Source: Eledone cirrhosa
Lineage: Eukaryota
DNA length: 64,000 bases
Reading direction: 5' to 3'
Assembly: GCA_964016885.1 (NCBI GenBank)
Contig: OZ024750.1
Span: 21,142,001 to 21,206,000, forward strand
A model generated the notes under the pieces. The model was not told the DNA's origin, made no database searches, and worked only from the letters and a program-made list of their open reading frames with translations. The translations under genes were made by a program, and so were the position numbers. Each line of letters starts with the position of its first letter. The stretch's first letter is position 1. Positions 3,540-62,835 of this stretch are shown here, one piece after another.

Positions 3540-3630
3540 CAGTTCTAATTATAGATATATTAAAATGTTATACACTTCTATGCATTGGGTATCTTACTTA
3601 CTGTGCTTACCCCCGATTGAACCTGGGATA
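3540..3630 (+). mobile_element. FB-C element, 3' tail fragment
   Basis: ttgggtatcttacttactgtgcttacccccgattgaacctgggata matches 42730-42770 and the reverse complement of 27348-27390; followed by (TA)n. Confidence 0.65.
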
Positions 3631-9454: not shown

Positions 9455-9522
9455 CGCATCTTAATTAGACATAGAAATAACTTCTACAGGACGTGAACTC
9501 TTTCATTCGTATGAAATCATCA
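9455..9522 (-). mobile_element. FB-C fragment with hammerhead-like core
   Basis: Minus strand gTGATGA-tttcatacgaat-GAAA-gagttcacgTC-ctgtagaag matches the family C core. Confidence 0.6.
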
Positions 9523-9850: not shown

Positions 9851-10015
9851 TGAGTCTCTATCGAGTAACGTTATTCCAAAGCCCGTTGATTTTATACCAA
9901 TAAAATAGTGTTACTACTCTGGAATTAAATTCTATATGTAATAAATATGACTATACTCTACCAACAAATTGAGAAGCTTCTTCAACTGTGGTTACACCAC
10001 AGCACTACTCGGATA

Positions 10016-10042
<27 letters not shown>

Positions 10043-10064
<22 letters not shown>

Positions 10065-10690
10065 TTGTCCCTGAGCTTCTTCTCAATCTCAGACTGGATC
10101 CTGTTAAGAATCATCCTGTTGAGGGTCTTTGCCGCAGGTGACGACAGTGAGATCCCACTGTAGTTGTTGTTGTTAGAGAGCTCTCCCTTCTTTGGCACTG
10201 GGACGATGTTACTGATCATCCACTGATTCGGGGCAACTCCTTTCTCCAGTGCCTGGTTACAGAACCCCAGGATGATTTCATCAAAATCACACCTCTTCAT
10301 CACCTCTGATGCCACTCCATCTTCTCCATGAGCCTTGCCCTCCTTGATCCTCTTCTTGGCTCTCTGAAGCTCCTATCTGGTGAAGGCCTCTATCTCAATG
10401 TCCAGTTCCTTTAACAGCCGCCTGATCTCCCCAGTGATCTGGGCTGTGGAGGGTGACTCTCCTAGTATGGTCCTAAAATGGTCTAGCCATTTCCCCTTCC
10501 TATCTTTGGGCCCCGTTCCTTGGATCTGATTTGAACAACTTCTCTTCCTCCCTGTGATCTCGTTGATCATCCAGCTCTCCTTACATCCAGACCTGTCAAC
10601 CGCTCTTTCCACACTTCTGATCTTCTCTATCAGTGCCTCCTCTCTGGCCTCAGTGTAAGCGGTACAGAGTTCTTCCCTCATTACCTCAAC
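10043..10690 (-). mobile_element. RTE-clade LINE, inverted 5' segment (region upstream of RT plus the first RT motifs, disrupted)
   Basis: KEGKAHGEDGVASEVMK...PNQWMISNIVPVPKKGELSNNNNYSGISLSSPAAKTLNRMILNRI contains the KAxGxDG, PKKG and NYRxISL non-LTR RT motifs. Confidence 0.9.
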
Positions 10691-11130
10691 CGCTTCATTG
10701 CTGTAGTGGAGTCTGTGCTGCTGTACGGATGTGAGACTTAGACAATGACCAAGAAACTCACTCAGATGGTGGATGGGTGCTACACGAGAATGCTGAGGAT
10801 GGCTCTGAACCATTAAGCAGTATACACTGAGGATGAAAAACTCAGAGCTGTATGGGAGCCTCCCAAAGGTCAGCTCAAAAGTGACACCAGAGGATACTGA
10901 GGTTTACTGGACATGCTCACCGACATCCAGAGTTGACATTGCACTCAGTGCTCCTGTGGGATCCCCTACATGGACACACTGGAAGAGGAAGACCAAGGTT
11001 AACGTATGTTAATGCCCTAAGGACAGACACTGGTCTGTTGGAGACGCAGGACATGGCAGCAATAATGAGGGACAGAGACCGCTGGAGAGAACTCGTTCAT
11101 GGATCTCGGGAATTCTACCCGCTCTAGAAA
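10691..11130 (+). mobile_element. RTE-clade LINE, sense 3' segment (C-terminal region, disrupted)
   Basis: FIAVVESVLLYGCET*TMTKKLTQMVDGCYTRMLRMALN and VLLWDPLHGHTGRGRPRLTYVNALRTDTG...MRDRDRWR*. Confidence 0.9.
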
Positions 11131-12172: not shown

Positions 12173-12415
12173 TAGAAGTAGTTCCACAACAGTTAGTTCA
12201 CCATACCGAGAACAATTGTTTCACTTTATTCGGATCCTCAGCTTCGACTGAATGAAGTTGTAAGAGGAAGAAAGAACAACTGTACCGAGCTGATGATCCT
12301 AATAAGGTGAAACTATTGTTCTCAGTATGGTGAACTGTTGTGGAACTACTTCTACCAAACTCGTCCCATGGACTGAGTGTTCTACTACTACATATATAAC
12401 CCACCAGTGTTCTAC

Positions 12416-12420
<5 letters not shown>
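12173..12420 (+). mobile_element. FB-F fold-back element in (TA)n with a hammerhead motif on each strand
   Basis: Inverted arms 12173-12243 and 12287-12354, about 66 nt unpaired tail, TA tracts on both sides. Confidence 0.85.
12283..12327 (+). ncRNA. Minimal type-I hammerhead ribozyme motif
   Basis: taccgag-CTGATGA-tcc taataa gg t-GAAA-ctattg-TT-ctcagta; stem I 7 bp with 1 mismatch; the opposite-arm copy reads CTGAGGA...GAAA-caattg-TT-ctcggta with a palindromic stem III. Confidence 0.75.
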
Positions 12421-12457
<37 letters not shown>

Positions 12458-12459
<2 letters not shown>

Positions 12460-12657
12460 CGAAGGAAATGTGGTAAGGAACCAGATGGACCATAATGCAC
12501 CAAAGTACTCAATACTTAGGGTAGTAGAGTGGGTAATAGAAACGAGTAGGACCCCGACGGCTGAGCTCAAGCCGTTTCGACGGCTAATTCTGGACTCTGA
12601 GTCCGGAATTAGCCGTCGAAACGGCTTGAGCTCAGCCGTCGGGGTCCTACTCGTTCC

Positions 12658-12661
<4 letters not shown>
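12458..12661 (-). mobile_element. FB-A fold-back element in (TA)n
   Basis: 77-nt tail aacgaaggaaatgtgg...gggt, then a near-perfect palindrome 12535-12661 centred on 12598; contains GAAA-cggct tgagctc agccg-TC (hammerhead 3' half). Confidence 0.9.
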
Positions 12662-12709
<48 letters not shown>

Positions 12710-15627: not shown

Positions 15628-15685
<58 letters not shown>

Positions 15686-15686
<1 letters not shown>

Positions 15687-15886
15687 ACGAAGGAAATGTA
15701 GTAAGGAACCAGGTGGACCAAAACGCATCAAAGTACTCAATACTTAGGGTAGTAGAGTGGGTAATAGGAACGAGTAGGACCCCGACGGCTGAGCTCAAGC
15801 CGTTTCGACGGCTAATTCTGGACGGCTAATTGGCCAGAATTAGCCGTCGAAACGGCTTGAGCTCAGCCGTCGGGGTCCTACTCGTT

Positions 15887-15891
<5 letters not shown>
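15686..15891 (-). mobile_element. FB-A fold-back element in (TA)n
   Basis: Same tail and arms as 12458 but a different palindrome centre (ctggacggctaattggccag). Confidence 0.9.
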
Positions 15892-17738: not shown

Positions 17739-18819
17739 CAATCAGTGTTATTATTGATACTGCTTTTGTCTCCGACTTACACGCCCTCATCTTTCCCAAT
17801 ATACACCTGTATTGCAGAATCGGCGGTGGCTATGTTCAGCTGAAGGTAAATCATGGGCGTTACTTGCTCATGTATCAAAGATGCGATTCATCAATAAATC
17901 GTGTACCCTGCTATTTTCTTGATGACATACTCGGACGTCAGGAAATTTCCCCCCTCTTGGAGTGCATGGAGTACACGGAACTCAATGTTCATGTTTCCAC
18001 TATTTTCATATCGTATCTACCCTGAGGCGTAGAATTCGTCCTCAGATCCAGGGGACTTGATCATTCCGAGAAGGTAGACTTGTTGAAAAGACTGTGTTAT
18101 GAAAATGTTCACTATCACTTTAATAATTATCAGGTGTTTCTGCGAATTATTTTTCAATTAATTAATCTTTATAATTATGATTATTTACTTTACGTAATTA
18201 TTTATTTTATACGCTTTATAATTATTTGTTATTAGGGCTATTATTTTCCGTTTTTACAACTTTTATAATAATTCCTTGTAATTATTTACTGTTAATATTT
18301 TTAACACTTTTGTATTATATCTTATTATTTTCGTTGTTATTACTGTCAACCCTACAATATCCCTTTAACAGTGCATCCCTTTAAGGCTTTATTGCCATTT
18401 TACATGAATTCTCCGTCATACAACGCTGATTTCGCCCAAACCCAGAATAGGTATCACAGTTCCAATGCTGCTACCAGACCATTGGGTTGCAGACATTCAA
18501 CTAATGATTGTTATGTGGCGGGTGTGTGATAGGCTATAATTGATATCATCACATATCAACATTTGGCCTAACTACGGTCACTGTGCTACCCTCTTGGCCA
18601 AGTATGCAAGACCGCCATGCAAAACATTGAAAAGAGGGTGATCATACGGAGGTGATGCCCTGATGGATATTGAACAGCTAGCCCATGCAAGCTACATATC
18701 ACACATTTTGTGTTTTTATGGTGCAGTACCCTTCAACGATTGCTTAACTAAATCTGTTATGTTCATGCCATCTGGGTTTTTTTACATCATGGTCTACATG
18801 TATATCCCGAGTTAAATGG

Positions 18820-18968
18820 AGGGTAATCATAGTAAATGGGGTACTCAATATATTAGTAGAGTGTAAACATCAATATTTAATCGAAAAAAAAACGGCTGCT
18901 GTAGGACTAGAAATGTGTCATTCATATGAAATCATCAGGAGTCATGTAGACTCAATTTCTATATTAAA
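18820..18968 (-). mobile_element. FB-C element, diverged
   Basis: Minus strand CTGATGA-tttcatatgaat-GACA-catttctagTC-ctacag; ends atttctatattaaata like the copy at 25238. Confidence 0.6.
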
Positions 18969-19371
18969 TACATACATACTTACATAAATATGTTCATACA
19001 TACATACATACATTAGGTGTGTGTGTGTTATGCGAAAGTTTGAGACGTAGTTGAATTAATCAATCAATCTATCCCACATATCAAGTATAGGGAAAAAGAA
19101 TATGTAATTGGGTGTAGTGTTGGGTATGAGGAACACAATTCCATCTAAACAATTCTGATTTCTAAGAATGGAAAATAAAATATTTCCCTCGATATGCCAT
19201 TTTACTTTTGTTAAATATTACACTACTGTATCTCTATATTCTCTTTTAGAAATTGCCGCTTGCTTTTCTCGCTTTCAATCTCGACATCTATATATCTATC
19301 GCTTGATTTATCAATCTATCCGTCTTTTTCTATCCATCTATTTATCTAGCCAACTACGTACCTGCCTACCT

Positions 19372-24982: not shown

Positions 24983-25128
24983 ATAGGAAAATGATTGACC
25001 CCGTTTCGACGGCTTGAGCTCTGTCGTCGGGGTCAATCATTTTCATATTACCCACTCTACTACCCTAAGTATTCGGTATTCTGGTGCGTTATGGTTCATC
25101 TGGTTCCTTGCCACACTTCCTTCGTCTT
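24983..25128 (+). mobile_element. FB-A element, diverged, short inverted arm
   Basis: ataggaaaatgattgacccc / ggggtcaatcattttcatat plus the family A tail. Confidence 0.85.
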
Positions 25129-25237
25129 ATATATATATATTGTATATATATATATATATTTATATAAATACATGTGTGTGTGTACGTGTGTGTGTGTGTG
25201 TATCTGTGGGCGTATGTATGTGTACCCCTCCCCGTCC

Positions 25238-25410
25238 AATCGGAGTTAACCACAGTAAGTAAGGTACTCAATACATAGCAGAGTATAACTATTTAATATA
25301 GAAATGGATTGCTTCTACAGGACTAGAACTGTTACATTCGAAGGAAATCCTGATGATCTCATTTGAATGAAACATTTATAATCCTGTAGTGGCTATTTCT
25401 ATATTAAATA
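25238..25410 (-). mobile_element. FB-C fold-back element; inverted arm carries CTGATGA...GAAA at 25350-25372
   Basis: tttaatatagaaat...ctacagga / tcctgtag...atttctatattaaa inverted arms; tail at left. Confidence 0.8.
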
Positions 25411-25443
25411 TATATATATACTTAATATTTGAATGTGTGTGTA

Positions 25444-27110: not shown

Positions 27111-27279
27111 CACATATATATATATGGACAGTCTCCCTTCCTCAGTAGTTAACTAGGCATCACGGATGTCCACCTTTTGTTCTTGTCTCCTTACCTTCTA
27201 ACACCCGTTATCAGTAACCACATCTCATCCATGCTTTTTGGTACACATATATATATATATACATATATATATATGTGTG

Positions 27280-27323
<44 letters not shown>

Positions 27324-27347
27324 TGTGTGTGTGTGTATATATAAGTT

Positions 27348-27470
27348 ATTCCGGGTTGAATCGGAGGTAACCACAGTAAGTAAGGTACTCAATACATACC
27401 ATAGTATAATAGTTTTAATATAGATGAGATTCTACAGGACTAGAACTGTTTCATTCTTTAGAAATCATCG
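27348..27470 (-). mobile_element. FB-C element fused to an FB-A element
   Basis: Minus strand GATGA-tttc taaa gaat-GAAA-cagttctag-TC-ctgtag plus the full tail to ...caacccggaat. Confidence 0.85.
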
Positions 27471-27706
27471 TAATAGGAACACGTATGACCCCGACGGCAG
27501 AGCTCGAGCCGTTTCGACGGCTATTTGTGGATTAAATAAGAATTTTTAGCCTGGTAAATTGTTATTTAGTCCAGAAATAGCCGTCGAAAAGGCTTGAAAT
27601 CTGCTGTCGGGGTCTTACTTGATCCTATTACCCACTCTACTACTTTAAGTATTGAGTACTTTGGTGCGTCATGGTCCATCTGGTTCCTTACCACAATTCC
27701 TTCGTT
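27471..27706 (+). mobile_element. FB-A fold-back element with a longer central spacer
   Basis: Arms taataggaac...cggctatttgtggattaaataa / ttatttagtccagaaatagccg...cctatta plus tail. Confidence 0.85.
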
Positions 27707-27805
27707 ATATATATGTATGTATAAATATATGTATGTATATATAGTATATATATGTATATATACTATATATATGTACATATATTATATATATGTATATATA
27801 GTATT

Positions 27806-28025
27806 GTGAAGGCGTGTGGCTGAGTGGTTAGAGAATTGGATTCGCAATCGTAAGGTTGTGAGTTCGATTCCTGGACCAGGCGATGCGTTACGTCCTTGAG
27901 CAAGACACTTTATTTCACGTCGCTCCTTCTACCTGGAGTTGCGAACGATAGATAGTATTAGCAATTGGAAAGACCAACGGAAACATTGTTACCGCGGTCC
28001 GATTTGACGAAAGTCGATTGTTTAA
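27806..28025 (+). mobile_element. tRNA-derived SINE family B
   Basis: tggctgagtgg A-box, gagttcgattcc B-box, gtccttgagcaagacacttt core; highly similar copy at 46627. Confidence 0.88.
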
Positions 28026-28229
28026 GATATATAGTATATATATATATGTATATATAGTATATATATAATTATATATATATATAATTAGATATATATATAT
28101 AATTATATATATATATAATTATATATATATATAATTATATATATTATATATATGTATACATATATATATATATATATATAATAAGGAAAAGCGAAGTAGT
28201 TTCAGATGTTCAAGTCCTTTAATAATAAT

Positions 28230-28303
28230 GCTGTGATATATATTTCAGTGACGACACTGGCCACACTGTTCTGTGTGCGAGTGTCGTGTCATCATCAGAC
28301 AGC
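28230..28303 (-). ncRNA. Complete type-I hammerhead ribozyme motif
   Basis: gctgt-CTGATGA-tgacacgacact..cacac agaaca gtgtg..agtgtcgtcact-GAAA-tatata-TC-acagc: 5-bp stem I, long stem II, palindromic stem III, AUC triplet. Confidence 0.85.
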
Positions 28304-28474
28304 TTGTTACATAATAAGGTTATGTTTCCGAGGCAATCCAAATTGGATCGACAAGGGAACGAATGAATTGCGTGTTCTTGGGTTTTTCATCCGCTCCCTT
28401 GTGAGTACCAATTCACCTCCACAGGCCTGCGCTAGCTCAAGCGTATGTCCGAAGGAAGTTGACCATTCGCCACC

Positions 28475-28548
28475 GCAGACTGATGATGACACGACACTCG
28501 CACACAGAACAGTGTGGCCAGTGTCGTCACTGAAATATATATCACAGC
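28475..28548 (+). ncRNA. Second hammerhead copy with an imperfect stem I 5' strand
   Basis: gcaga-CTGATGA...GAAA-tatata-TC-acagc. Confidence 0.65.
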
Positions 28549-29015
28549 ATTATTATTAAAGGACTTGAACATCTGAAACTACTTCGCTTTTCCTTATTCG
28601 ATATTTACTCCGTCACTCCTATGTGGAAAAAGTACGTTGAGTGCTTGAATTGAATTGCATCAATGTTTACCCTAATATATATATATATATATACATGGTG
28701 AAGAAAGACTCTATCATGCTACAGCACACATATAACGTATTTTCTGTATAATAAAGCTATTATTATCTGCAGCAGCGGTTGCAATCCCATCAATGATGGA
28801 CCCACCTTTTCGTGGGACATAAATTCTACCAAAGGAAACAGAATTTCAAATATTTAGAATAATTGCGTGATGCCGTGTATGGGTAAGGATGTATCAGAAA
28901 AGCGATACAACACACGCCAATTGCGATGGGTTTTCTTTTAAATAAACGAAAGGAACAAAAAGATAAATATTTCAAAATAAAAATAAGTATTTCAGAAATA
29001 CAGCAACTAAATTTT

Positions 29016-29079
<64 letters not shown>

Positions 29080-29084
<5 letters not shown>

Positions 29085-29275
29085 AACCAGTAAGACCCCG
29101 ACAGCTGAGCTCAAGCCGTTTCGACGGCTAATTCTGCATAATTCAGAATTAGCCGTCAAAACGGCTTGAGCTCAGCTGTCGGGGTCTTACTGGTTCCTAT
29201 TACCCACTCTACTACCTCAAGTATTGAGTACTTTGGTGCGTTATGGTCCACCTGGTTCCTTACCACATTTCCTTC

Positions 29276-29321
<46 letters not shown>

Positions 29322-29513
29322 AACCAGTAAGACCCCGACAGCTGAGCTCAAGCCGTTTCGACGGCTAATTCTGCATAATTCAGAATTAGCCGTCGAAACG
29401 GCTTGAGCTCAGCTGTCGGGGTCTTACTGGTTCCTATTACCCACTCTACTACCTCAAGTATTGAGTACTTTGGTGCGTTATGGTCCACCTGGTTCCTTAC
29501 CACATTTCCTTCG

Positions 29514-29515
<2 letters not shown>
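29080..29515 (+). mobile_element. Two near-identical tandem FB-A elements (29080-29278, 29317-29515)
   Basis: Same arms, same centre (ctgcataattcag) and same private variants; separated by (TA)n. Confidence 0.92.
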
Positions 29516-29556
<41 letters not shown>

Positions 29557-31659: not shown

Positions 31660-33399
31660 CAAGTGTGAAATATAATGCATGTCTGGAGCTGTATGGTATA
31701 TATATATATATATATATATTTGCTTTATCTTGACGTTTCAGTTACAGCTTATCGCAGTAGCTGCGGCATTCGTCAGAAAGGTAATAACGTTGAAAGTTCC
31801 ACGAATAAAATTTAAAGCCTGACATGCATCGCCTGATTTAATAAACCCATCAAACCTTAACTCGCCTTTGGTGGAGCGATCTGTGATGAACGCATAATAA
31901 CCAGGCCTTTTATTTGAGTATAAGGCCTTTGATTTGAGTATACATTCTTCATTCCCTTGTATCAAACTCGGAGTACAAGAAAATGGTTATAAGCACTGCC
32001 TAGTCACCTTATTATAAACGAATTACTATCTATACTATAAATTATTGTACTATGATTAGTTCTATTTATGTTCACATGCCCGTTTCTATTTTTTTCATAG
32101 AATTTCAGATACCTTTTATGACTGTTGCTCTAGTTCTCAATGTGATTAGTAATAATGCTAATATTCAAATACAGGTTTAACAAAGCCTCCTTTGGCAGCG
32201 ACCTCTGCCATGCATACACCTTATCATGTCTCTAGCTTAGGGAAAGATATTTTCTTTCTCTCAAGCAGGCTTTCTATGCCATGAATATGGTTGTGATTAT
32301 AATCCACCCACCTGTCTAACTATGCTATAGGTTCACAAGTACTTTCCAAATGTAACTATTCTGAACATTATTATATATCTTCTTTATTTTTTTCTCCTGA
32401 CGTTCGAAATAAAGTTTATGACAGAGGTTTTGATTTTCAATCAGATTCGTATTAATTTTGACAAAATCATGGATAAAATGTACAAACTTACGCACATAGA
32501 TAGTATCTAGTATAAAATAACATTATAAAACACAATTTCTGATATTGAAGCAAAGCAGAGCGTATAATCTCTATTTCCAGAATATTATTGTCTTACATCG
32601 TACGATTCATAAGATGACAAGAGAAACACAAATAGACATAACAATAAAATGAAATGAAATATCTCCTGAAGAATGTTCTAGCAGGAAGGACACAAATGTA
32701 ATGAAATAATATGTATGTGACACATGAGATCTGCCGCTGCGACAATCTCTTACGGTAATATTTTAGAACTGAATTCCTTTCAGTAAAAACTTCAAACGAT
32801 CTGTTCCACACAGAAATAAATCATTGGTGACACTAACAATTGTTATTCACCAGCCAAAATATCACGTTTCCAAAAGTGCAAACACATAAACCAACATATG
32901 ATAATATAAAACAACGGCAAAATTAACAACAAAAGTGTTCTGTTAGTTATTCACACCTGATATATATATGTAGTTAAATGGTATGTTCCGAAGATATAAC
33001 ATATGATATATTAGAACATCGAGTAGAATGTATTGCAACAGTTGTTCAAACTTTCTCTCTCTCTCCGACTTAAGCCTACTTTTCGTTTTCGTGCGTGTAT
33101 ATGTGTATGTGATAGCACGGCGCTTAGTGTTATGTTATTCGGATAATTATTGTAAGACGTTGATTTCAATTCCACAAGAAACACTCTGTCAAGTTACTCC
33201 TCACAACTCAACCGCGAGAAAATCAGTTGTGGCTATAATTCAGTGCCGTCAGATATCTGGCAAGTTGGATTTTTCCCGAGAACCACAGTAACGGTACATG
33301 TGTCTATAGAAATTGCAGCTGATTACCCATTAATATCATGAGGTGGATTTTCTGGTTGAATTGAAATTACTGGAACATACCATGCCAAATCTCACTTGT

Positions 33400-33780: not shown

Positions 33781-34201
33781 AGTTAAAAGAATAGAGGTGT
33801 AACACACAAGTTATTATATATTGGTAAACGGAATAGAAAATGCTGACAAATTGTTCACAGTTGAAAAATGGTTTAATTAGGAATAAAAGAGTATTAGTGA
33901 TTGTATGGGTTAGTATTCAGTTGTGGTTTTAAGTTTTTAAGTTTTTACCGGTTGCGCATTTCTAAATGCTTTTCAAAAATAATTTTGAGATAGAGTGTCC
34001 GTGCTGTTTGCTCTGATCAGAGCAAACAACACGGACACTCTATCTCAAAATTATTTTTGAAAAGCATTTAGAAATGCGCAACCGGTAAAAACTTAAAAAC
34101 CACAACTGAATACTAACCCATACAATCACTAATACTCTTTTATTCCTAATTAAACCATTTTTCAACTGTGAACAATTTGTCAGCATTTTCTATTCCGTTT
34201 A

Positions 34202-34208
<7 letters not shown>
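33781..34208 (-). mobile_element. FB-H element: near-perfect 390-bp palindrome plus a 35-nt tail, in (TA)n
   Basis: Centre tgatca at 34014-34019 with no spacer; arms differ by an 8-nt duplication and one substitution; each arm has ttt-TTGAAAA-gcattt aga aatgc-GCAA-ccgg-TA-aaa (34054-34091). Confidence 0.88.
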
Positions 34209-34271
<63 letters not shown>

Positions 34272-34415: not shown

Positions 34416-34573
34416 GTGTGTGTGTTAAGTATTTAAGTAAAGAAAGGTAAAAGATAGAAGAGTGCTCTATGTATAGAACGGAGCTATTCAATTCCATAAT
34501 AAACAAGGCAATATAATTAGTCCAATAATTATATTGTGTTGTTTATTATGTTTATTATTATTATATATATATA

Positions 34574-34863
34574 CGAGGGCAATCCCAAAAGTAAGGTCTC
34601 CTTCCGATACTGCAACTTTTCCGTTAAAATCCCGTGGATGGTGCTTCCGGAAACCTCAGGAACCAAAATGCACTAGGTGGTGGCGTTAAAAGGGAGCTCC
34701 ATGTTCAACGGTTGCCAAGACACGATTGGGCATCCCAGCGAAGTGCGCGCATGCTTGTTTGGGAGCGAAGGAAGCACCAATCACAACAGTGTTGCCAACA
34801 GCCGTGCGAACAGTTTCTCTGCGTCCCCATCGCGTTGGAGACCTTACTTTTGGGATTGCCCTC

Positions 34864-34864
<1 letters not shown>
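34574..34864. mobile_element. Tc1/mariner-type MITE, 291 bp
   Basis: Perfect 28-bp TIRs cgagggcaatcccaaaagtaaggtctcc (34574-34601 / 34837-34864) with TA on both sides. Confidence 0.9.
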
Positions 34865-34912
<48 letters not shown>

Positions 34913-42649: not shown

Positions 42650-42770
42650 TCCCTGGTTATTTCTCACGAATGAAACAGTTCTAGTCCTGTAGAAGCACTT
42701 CTATATTAAAACTGTTATACTCTGCAATGTAACCTTACTTACTGTGGTTACCTCCGATTCAACCGGGAAT
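42650..42770 (+). mobile_element. FB-C element, sense copy abutting the long TA tract
   Basis: CTGGTTA-tttctcacgaat-GAAA-cagttctag-TC-ctgtagaag plus tail to aaccgggaat. Confidence 0.8.
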
Positions 42771-44150
<1,380 letters not shown>

Positions 44151-46556: not shown

Positions 46557-46626
<70 letters not shown>

Positions 46627-46843
46627 GTGAAGGCGTGTGGCTGAGTGGTTAGAGAATTGGATTGGCAATTGTAAGGTTGTGAGTTCGATTCCTGGACCAG
46701 GCGATGCGTTATGTCCTTGAGCAAGACACTTTATTTCACGTTGCTCCTTCTACCTGGAGTTGCGACCGATAGACAGTATTAGCAATTGGAAAGACCAACG
46801 GAAACATTGTTCTCTCGGTCCGATTTGACGAACGTCGATCGTT
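46627..46843 (+). mobile_element. tRNA-derived SINE family B
   Basis: Highly similar to 27806-28025. Confidence 0.88.
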
Positions 46844-58163: not shown

Positions 58164-58217
<54 letters not shown>

Positions 58218-58218
<1 letters not shown>

Positions 58219-58453
58219 TAAGTATATTTTGAAACAGTGAGCGAGTTTGAAATTAGAAAATATATAGCTTTCACCGTATTTTTAACTAAAGGAATGTTTG
58301 CTTGATAACAGGGTTTAGAACCCTCAGATAAATGGAAAAAGATGAGTATTGACGTACATGTACGTCAATACTCATCTTTTTCCATTTATCTGAGGGTTCT
58401 AAACCCCGTTATCAAGCTAAAATTCCTTTAGTTAAAAATACGGTGAAAGCTAT

Positions 58454-58465
<12 letters not shown>
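58218..58465 (-). mobile_element. FB-T fold-back element in (TA)n
   Basis: Palindrome 58252-58465 centred on gtacatgtac, plus a 34-nt tail; homologous to 59988-60523. Confidence 0.88.
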
Positions 58466-59987: not shown

Positions 59988-60523
59988 ATTATTAGAAATG
60001 TAAGCTATCGCCGTATTTTGACTAAAGAAATTAAAGAAATTTTTTAGCCTGATAGTGGAGTTAAGAACCCTCGGAGAAATGGAAAAACATGAGTATTGGC
60101 GTACATGTTTGGTTATCCGGACCACTGTGCTACTATTTACACCAACACATCACCCGTCTTTTTCCATTCAAATTAGAAGCTATAAACTTGTCGACTGTAA
60201 TGTCAAGTAAGGATATTTTCGAAACAGCGAGTTGGTTTGAAAATATCCTTACTTGACATTACAGTCGCTAAGTTTATAGCTGCTAATTTGAATGGAAAAA
60301 GACGGGTGATGTGTTGGTGTAAAAGGTAGCACAGTGGTCCGGATAACCAAAGATATGGGTTCGACTCCCATGTACGTCAATACTCATCTTTTTCCATTTC
60401 TCCGAGGGTTCTTAACTCCACTATCAGGCTAAATAATTTCTTTAATTTCTTTAGTCAAAATACGGCGATAGCTTACATTTCTAATAATTTCAAACCAACT
60501 CGCTGTTTCGAAAATATCCTTAC
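59988..60523 (+). mobile_element. FB-T fold-back element, longer copy containing a tRNA-like domain
   Basis: Arms about 59988-60222 and 60238-60487; the terminal sequence ...gaaaatatccttac recurs at the centre; TA tracts on both sides. Confidence 0.88.
60308..60379 (+). tRNA. 72-nt tRNA-like cloverleaf (pseudo-tRNA / Pol III promoter), possibly tRNA-Arg-derived
   Basis: Acceptor gatgtgt/gtacgtc+a, D arm gtgt/gcac, tggt/acca arm, T arm atggg-TTCGACT-cccat; TTTTT at 60389-60393; anticodon loop non-canonical. Confidence 0.65.
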
Positions 60524-62701: not shown

Positions 62702-62748
<47 letters not shown>

Positions 62749-62750
<2 letters not shown>

Positions 62751-62835
62751 CGAAGGAAATGTGGTAAGGAACCAGGTGGACCATAACGCACCAAAGTACT
62801 CAATACTTAGGGTAGTAGAGTAGGTCCTACTCGTT

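Follow-up and report, generated by a model that had tools for sequence, protein, structure and literature searches.

The insert studied here occupies positions 28180-28674 of the window, by which we mean the whole stretch of 64,000 nucleotides of Eledone cirrhosa DNA that was analysed (Table 1). Its longest perfect inverted match is 119 bp, with 28180-28298 and 28480-28598 identical at 119 of 119 positions, as an earlier sequence-only reading of this DNA had reported. The element is asymmetric: the left arm directly abuts (TA)n, and the right arm carries a tail of about 70-76 bp before (TA)n is reached. The inner ends of both arms lie at the C of CTGATGA, at 28298 on the minus strand and at 28480 on the plus strand. 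This had been taken to mean that each arm ends exactly at the ribozyme core. The positions are right, but because the minus copy continues into the middle segment, one breakpoint had been counted twice.

Table 1. Features of the insert and of its flanking target sequence, in window coordinates.
Feature	Position	Strand	Basis or remark
Left target microsatellite, (TA)n-rich	28061-28179	.	Sequence
Left arm	28180-28298	-	Holds the 3' end of the main copy, which is read toward decreasing coordinates; untailed, directly next to (TA)n
Complete type I hammerhead, cleavage only predicted	28230-28303	-	Descriptor scan, folding, run joint 28299/28480 on opposite strands
Middle segment, likely 3' untranslated region	28299-28479	-	Main copy upstream of the hammerhead, 5'-truncated at 28479
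Middle-segment hairpin	28351-28402	-	17 contiguous pairs on the minus strand; mismatches interrupt the plus strand
Right arm	28480-28598	+	Inverted, more strongly 5'-truncated copy, starts at core C3
One-sided tail (extension), about 70-76 bp	28599-28674	+	Family 3' ends in run X1
Right (TA)n target microsatellite	28675-28694	.	Sequence

The hairpin of the middle segment bears on the direction in which the main copy is read. Folding gave an energy of -23.8 kcal/mol for the minus strand versus -19.6 kcal/mol for the plus strand. At two A·C mismatches of the plus strand (28359/28394 and 28362/28391), the minus strand has a G·U pair and the majority of the family a Watson-Crick pair. A stronger hairpin on the minus strand is what would be expected if the minus strand is the RNA. 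No head-to-tail tandem was present at the locus.

Coding content was examined in 349 stop-to-stop frames of at least 42 amino acids in the window, from which low-complexity frames had been removed beforehand. None of these frames contained a Pfam domain above the cut-off, the four weak matches all being below it, and no host exon with such a domain was found among them. In the same search, neither the fragment nor the window gave coding sequence for a Penelope reverse transcriptase (RT) or a GIY-YIG nuclease. A minus-strand frame of 56 amino acids in the middle segment had been considered as a LINE C-terminal motif because of a likeness. It belonged to no Pfam family, its two matches in a representative protein search were spurious, being short and to repetitive proteins, and among longer proteins 0 of 15 candidates were supported. 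Decayed frames at 9995-10903 on the minus strand, which we take to resemble a LINE ORF2 fragment, also gave no Pfam match. Short repeats of another type are present as well: a SINE-like repeat that begins with a tRNA-like head has two copies of 94% identity (27787-28022 and 46609-46843), the first lying a short distance to the left of the element, and another SINE-like repeat has about ten copies scattered through the window. The host is an animal with an AT-rich genome, whose repeats seem to resemble those of octopus.

Hammerhead motifs and their predicted folding

The minus copy has a 5-bp stem I formed by GCTGT (28303-28299) and ACAGC (28234-28230), followed by the core CUGAUGA (28298-28292) and a long stem II, with 45 nt from the core to GAAA (28246-28243). 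Stem III is indeed palindromic, as had been noticed from the letters: it consists of the 8-nt palindrome ATATATAT at 28243-28236, running from A15.1 to U16.1. The triplet ATC (AUC) at 28237-28235 places the predicted cut after the C at 28235. The core positions C3-A9 and G12-A14, the A15.1-U16.1 pair, H17 and helix I are all as a hammerhead requires, and the base of stem II departs from the standard, with U10.1·U11.1 in place of G10.1-C11.1 or another standard pair. According to passages in two earlier studies, this U·U is a known and tolerated variant of natural hammerheads (PMC3088659, PMC7229834).

The right arm retains the core, stem II and stem III, but the 5' strand of stem I is missing. 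GCAGA stands where GCTGT would be expected, so that this stem I contains two A·A mismatches, the first of which adjoins the core, and its pair probabilities in folding were at most 0.02. The plus copy also fails the type I descriptor. Because the A·A mismatches leave stem I unpaired, the plus copy is not a complete motif, which leaves the minus copy as the sole complete type I hammerhead of the element. The sequence-only reading had correctly assigned the intact stem I (GCTGT/ACAGC) to the minus copy and its loss to the plus copy; its broader claim of complete hammerhead motifs on both strands has to be given up.

Scanned on both strands with a type I descriptor that asked for a stem I of 4 bp or more, the window yielded two matches, and only the one at -28298 combines a 5-bp stem I with a stable stem II. 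Such a combination was found in 0 of 40 block-wise dinucleotide shuffles. Rfam returned a single match in the window at the gathering threshold, which is tRNA-like and lies at 60308-60379; no hammerhead match reached that threshold in the window, and none was present near the element among 60 weak matches with E up to 10. Scans of metagenome contigs and of viral contigs with a hammerhead pattern gave 0 matches each. Sequence variation in run X1, counted at 5% or more, affected none of the 13 core letters or the 10 stem I letters among the 30 of 34 variable places listed, an outcome with a chance probability of p = 0.15. In stem II, variants make up 10% of the X1 depth at position 28521 and 17% at 28527, and the partner change that these would need is absent from X1 at 5% or more, in data that carry no haplotypes.

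To describe the possible activity of the motif, folding energies were calculated with a nearest-neighbour model in which tertiary contacts are not included. The minus copy without the antisense arm folds both stem I and stem II, and the pair probabilities of stem I are then 0.36-0.65 in a 300-nt form and 0.54-0.98 for the hammerhead alone. The hammerhead fold of the monomer is about 6 kcal/mol less stable than the ensemble. A dimer hammerhead formed in trans through the palindrome reached -53.2 kcal/mol, as compared to -40.6 kcal/mol for two monomer hammerheads and -54.8 kcal/mol for the free dimer, which agrees with the earlier proposal of a dimer hammerhead of the Penelope type. In the parent RNA, weak activity of the hammerhead would be expected, for the most part from dimers formed via the ATATATAT palindrome.

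Folding of the whole element gave a different result. The 119-bp duplex wins, forcing the hammerhead costs 90.9 kcal/mol on the minus strand and 100.1 kcal/mol on the plus strand, and the pair probabilities of stems I and II are 0.0. Since the arms are arranged head to head, RNA read through from either strand contains the antisense arm before the ribozyme is made, and trapping in the duplex is predicted also for transcripts that end just past the ribozyme. Furthermore, the location of the two cores on opposite strands makes a dimer in cis impossible. According to these models, the locus most probably has no ribozyme activity, because read-through RNA would fold the arms into the 119-bp duplex and the second core lacks stem I. 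The self-cleavage that had been envisaged for this locus is not supported by folding. On the other hand, the expectation that read-through transcription of the element would give long dsRNA is in line with the predicted duplex.

The same data could be viewed as a functional two-strand ribozyme or dsRNA device, where the locus is transcribed and either cleaves or forms a long hairpin of relevance to the host. In favour of such a device, the minus-strand hammerhead is complete in its core letters and forms stems I and II once the antisense arm is left out, and read-through would give the 119-bp duplex; moreover, cleavage does occur in U·U hammerheads whose stem III has 2 bp, as described for HHR_Amex2 (PMC7229834). 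However, the plus core is without stem I, the whole-element fold disfavours the hammerhead by 91-100 kcal/mol, also in transcripts ending just past the ribozyme, the same layout is found in nine other inserts of which most have no visible core, and no host exon with a Pfam domain above the cut-off was detected among the 349 window frames. We therefore regard a device of this type as very improbable.

Copies of the family and formation of the inverted arms

The 12 listed sequencing runs included no RNA run, and four of them (X1, X5, X6 and X10) were aligned, using only the unique part of the element (28299-28674) as the reference. Runs with a small share were left out, and summed contig depth was not taken as copy number. 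Run X1 possibly derives from the same sample as the window. The unique part was matched by 1844 X1 contigs and by 1573 X10 reads, so the element belongs to a multi-copy family. The joint with the best support connects 28299 and 28480 on opposite strands; it is carried by 8 contigs of X1, by 150 X10 reads that begin at about 37 positions, and by 1 contig of X6. This joint is the minus reading with an intact stem I, which is the usual form of the family, and the usual upstream neighbour of 28480 is a sequence ending in GCTGT (7 contigs in X1). Past 28479, other copies continue with different letters and not with the core (5 contigs in X1, 308 reads in X10). Because of this difference, the minus copy is identified as the main copy, truncated at 28479, and the plus arm as a 5'-truncated inverted copy. 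Two 3' ends of the family were apparent in X1, one at 28604 (25 contigs, with (AT)n after it) and one at 28671 (43 contigs). Molecules in X10 also end at 28344, 28651 and 28656, where the window has AATT sites; these are presumably restriction ends, a link to an enzyme that we assume, and they were excluded.

Junctions from the middle segment to an arm also occur elsewhere in the family. Seven were found among the 15 of 19 joints listed and one further table, with arm-side positions 28503, 28507, 28531, 28540, 28541, 28570 and 28648, the one at 28570 coming from another organism (X5). No go-back joint was present among the 15 of 19 joints listed. The exact 28479/28480 junction of the locus was absent among the pieces listed, which are 19 of about 1,900. 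Together with the 100% identity of the arms, this absence would suit an inversion that arose as a fold-back artefact of assembly or library preparation. Yet the junction connects two different places of the family and is no mirror point, the 3' lengths of the arms differ in the way the family ends do, junctions of the same type occur in other copies and in another organism, and the window contains older, diverged cases, such as 12173-12354 with 87% arm identity. An artefact is extremely improbable in view of these observations.

Of the listed places, 16 distinguish the locus from the X1 majority; 14 of these are in the middle segment and two in the arms. The latter are letters found in a minority of X1 (28489 and 28530) and are common to both arms, so the arms were copied from one template, which probably belonged to a minor subfamily. 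With 0 mismatches in 119 bp, the 95% upper bound on arm divergence is 2.5%, and the insertion can be called fairly young, as the earlier reading had suggested. Arms that are 100% identical were also present in two of the seven other arm pairs measured in the window, and perfect arm identity is not special within it.

Probable assignment to Penelope-like elements

We conclude that the element is probably the 5'-truncated, non-coding stub of the 3' end of an EN+ Penelope-like retrotransposon, inserted in (TA)n together with an inverted, shorter copy of the 3' end, and predicted to be silent at this place. It possesses a type I hammerhead near the 3' end, an inverted 5'-truncated copy adjoining the 5' end, a one-sided tail with two 3' ends and a (TA)n target, and it is part of a dispersed multi-copy family. 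Every structural feature tested agrees with EN+ Penelope-like elements. Formal membership would also require a link to an RT/GIY-YIG reading frame; none was found in the fragment or the window, and a 300-bp stub of the 3' end is not expected to contain one.

A possible course of the insertion can be proposed on the basis of published work. The element-encoded reverse transcriptase and GIY-YIG nuclease would have nicked (TA)n, copying would have started at two sites of the RNA, one for the short and one for the tailed end, and a single event would have joined both truncated products head to head. Joining in a single event would mean that the arms were identical at birth. In published work, tail length is described as the distance between two RT start sites and copying as target-primed, and hammerhead cleavage was found to depend on protein and to be dispensable for insertion in vitro (PMC11167929).

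The layout has already been described and is ordinary. According to the relevant passages, EN+ Penelope-like elements have an inverted 5'-truncated copy, a one-sided tail of 30-40 bp and (TA)n targets (Craig et al., 2021, PMC8557442), and inverted pLTRs are joined head to head and may carry a tail (Arkhipova et al., 2013, PMC3846280). The element has in common with these insertions a head-to-head copy near the 5' end, a tail on one arm, (TA)n and a hammerhead near the 3' end. Unlike the insertions in these descriptions, it has a tail of about 70 bp instead of 30-40 bp, no ORF left and no palindrome at the junction. Hammerheads on both strands have also been described: Penelope-13_HM, of the Hydra clade, carries them through an inverted 5'-truncated copy (supplement of PMC8557442, in part), and dual minimal hammerheads lie on opposite strands at distances of 100-700 bp (Cervera and de la Pena, 2014, PMC4209133, in part). 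Two-strand motifs are thus a known by-product of Penelope insertion and do not point to a special system, and a hammerhead core on both strands is a footprint of how Penelope-like elements insert.

Similarities extend to the hammerhead itself. In the portion of the supplement of PMC8557442 that covers the Hydra clade, a U·U at the base of stem II was counted by eye in 14 of 25 families. The element shares with these hammerheads a U after the core, a U before GAA and the preference for (TA)n (PMC8557442, in part), and it shares with Hydra-1_Amil and Hydra-2_Amil, again by eye, a non-coding stretch from the stop codon to the hammerhead. In contrast to the Hydra-clade hammerheads shown there, and as compared by eye, stem II of the element is much longer and the stem III span is 8 nt instead of 9-10 nt. 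The motif listed for Hydra-1_Obim differs in sequence from that of the element, and a 12-letter motif of the element is absent from the text of the supplement, in which long sequence runs are shortened (PMC8557442). For Octopus vulgaris, part of a recent report counts 31 recently active Penelope-like families (PMC13282606).

The minimal and 'less atypical' hammerheads, as described in sections of PMC4209133, resemble the present motif in being of type I with a helix I of 4-5 bp and an enlarged helix II, and also in their small palindromic helix III, the expected action as dimers and the dual motifs on opposite strands. The difference is the U·U found here, which replaces the G10.1-C11.1 pair. 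For minimal Penelope-like hammerheads, the same source reports no cleavage with a single motif and low cleavage with dimers (PMC4209133, in part). The U·U at the base of helix II and a 2-bp helix III with a tetraloop are shared with HHR_Amex2 of axolotl non-LTR retrozymes, which cleaved weakly as a monomer (22% in one hour) and more strongly as a dimer (PMC7229834).

The resemblance in geometry to HHR_Amex2, which is a retrozyme motif, a unit size within the retrozyme range and the lack of a linked Penelope ORF could suggest another hammerhead-bearing retroelement that is not Penelope-like proper, either a non-LTR retrozyme monomer or an element of the LINE or DIRS-like type that twin priming has inverted. 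However, non-LTR retrozymes are head-to-tail tandem arrays with a complete hammerhead in each unit, whereas here one complete motif is present in an inverted layout, without a head-to-tail tandem at the locus or a go-back joint among the 15 of 19 joints listed. The one-sided tail, the two 3' ends and the (TA)n target are Penelope traits that are absent from a LINE insertion, according to the relevant part of PMC8557442. In addition, retrozymes have themselves been proposed to be derivatives of Penelope elements (bioRxiv 10.64898/2026.07.22.740005, in part). We consider an origin outside the Penelope-like elements very improbable. As a member of a hammerhead-bearing Penelope-like family, the insert at 28180-28674 is one more stub and matters little as it stands.

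Related inserts in the window and the position of inversion junctions

The lopsided layout, with one arm flush with (TA)n and a tail of 33-84 bp on the other, was found in 10 of the 20 rows of inverted pairs in the window. These ten rows, i.e., this element and nine others, span several families, and most have no hammerhead core in a relaxed scan. The many near-perfect head-to-head hairpin inserts of this type (10 of 20 rows) would provide dsRNA substrates wherever they are transcribed.

Long perfect inverted repeats and TA flanks are also properties of a MITE or fold-back DNA transposon, in which case the 119-bp terminal inverted repeats would contain a hammerhead by chance. This explanation is hardly credible: the 76-bp tail lies outside the right repeat, which is consequently not terminal, junction positions vary among copies, and the depth is uneven along the element. 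The insert at 34562-34876 provides the contrast. It is symmetric, has 40-bp terminal inverted repeats that are flush with TA on both sides, and looks like an ordinary MITE, with a possible likeness to Tc1/mariner.

A second two-strand hammerhead pair is located in another of the ten lopsided rows, at 12173-12390, and belongs to an unrelated family. Its cores are at -12241 and +12290, with a U at each side of the base of stem II; its arms are 87% identical, its stem I letters are different, and stem III of its minus copy is an 8-nt palindrome. Its tail is at the right, stem I is longer in the tailed plus copy, and the start of the inverted copy lies 2 nt before C3. A third, older hammerhead family with decayed cores was recognized at 25230-25416, 18800-18978, 9471-9522, 27340-27469, 42659-42775 and 3556-3625, also delimited as 25284-25416, 18828-18978, 9471-9522, 27247-27469 and 42659-42750. 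In two copies of this family, which are fold-backs, the junction coincides with the core or lies close to it. Candidate single hammerhead-like cores with imperfect stems are present at 31776 (minus), 19726, 47024, 20731 (minus) and 49066 (minus), several of them shortly before (TA)n.

The position of the junctions raises the possibility that the folded hammerhead itself sets the point where the reverse transcriptase stops or switches template. Junctions would then accumulate at the first core letter and would regularly give rise to a second core that lacks stem I, with its antisense arm silencing the first one. In all four inversion junctions of hammerhead-bearing inserts in the window, representing three families, one side lies within 5 nt of C3, with offsets of 0 at 28480, -2 at 12243, 0 at 25350 and about -5 at 18943. 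This count is biased, since the inserts were found partly via a search for the core. Among the joints listed, none of the seven other family junctions in X1 and X5 is near C3 on either side. One fold-back joint (28480/28519) does fall at the core, though the reference is split there, and the depth in X10 is alike on both sides of the core, with no drop. A narrow literature search, which does not show that the idea is unpublished, revealed nothing specific on inversion junctions that cluster at a hammerhead. We consider a role of the ribozyme fold in setting the junctions doubtful; if true, the fold would gain a function in a transposition step that is still poorly understood.

The tails of inserts from different families (28599-28674, 29201-29280, 27340-27430 and 12355-12420) align loosely, with a mean column identity of 60%. 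They all begin near a TATT-like word, and several carry ATTGAGTAC. The shared tail motif was not used as evidence: it gave 13 matches versus 6.4 expected, a number reached by 2 of 100 shuffles, and the 13 matches include repeat copies of the same families, while the tail at 28599-28674 has no exact match.

An abundant fold-back family without a visible core is represented at 12455-12662, 15680-15891, 24983-25132, 27470-27705, 29080-29280, 29317-29516 and 62705-62835. Its members, e.g., 12455-12662, have near-perfect arms of 53-57 bp, a one-sided tail of 75-84 bp and (TA)n flanks; the arms carry a small GCCGT-TTCG-ACGGC hairpin, and two tandem copies are found at 29080-29516. Longer fold-backs with arms of about 100-190 bp, one-sided tails of 33-37 bp and (TA)n are located at 33815-34211, 58217-58465 and 59988-60523. 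The last of these is a nested multiple inversion that includes the tRNA-like Rfam match.
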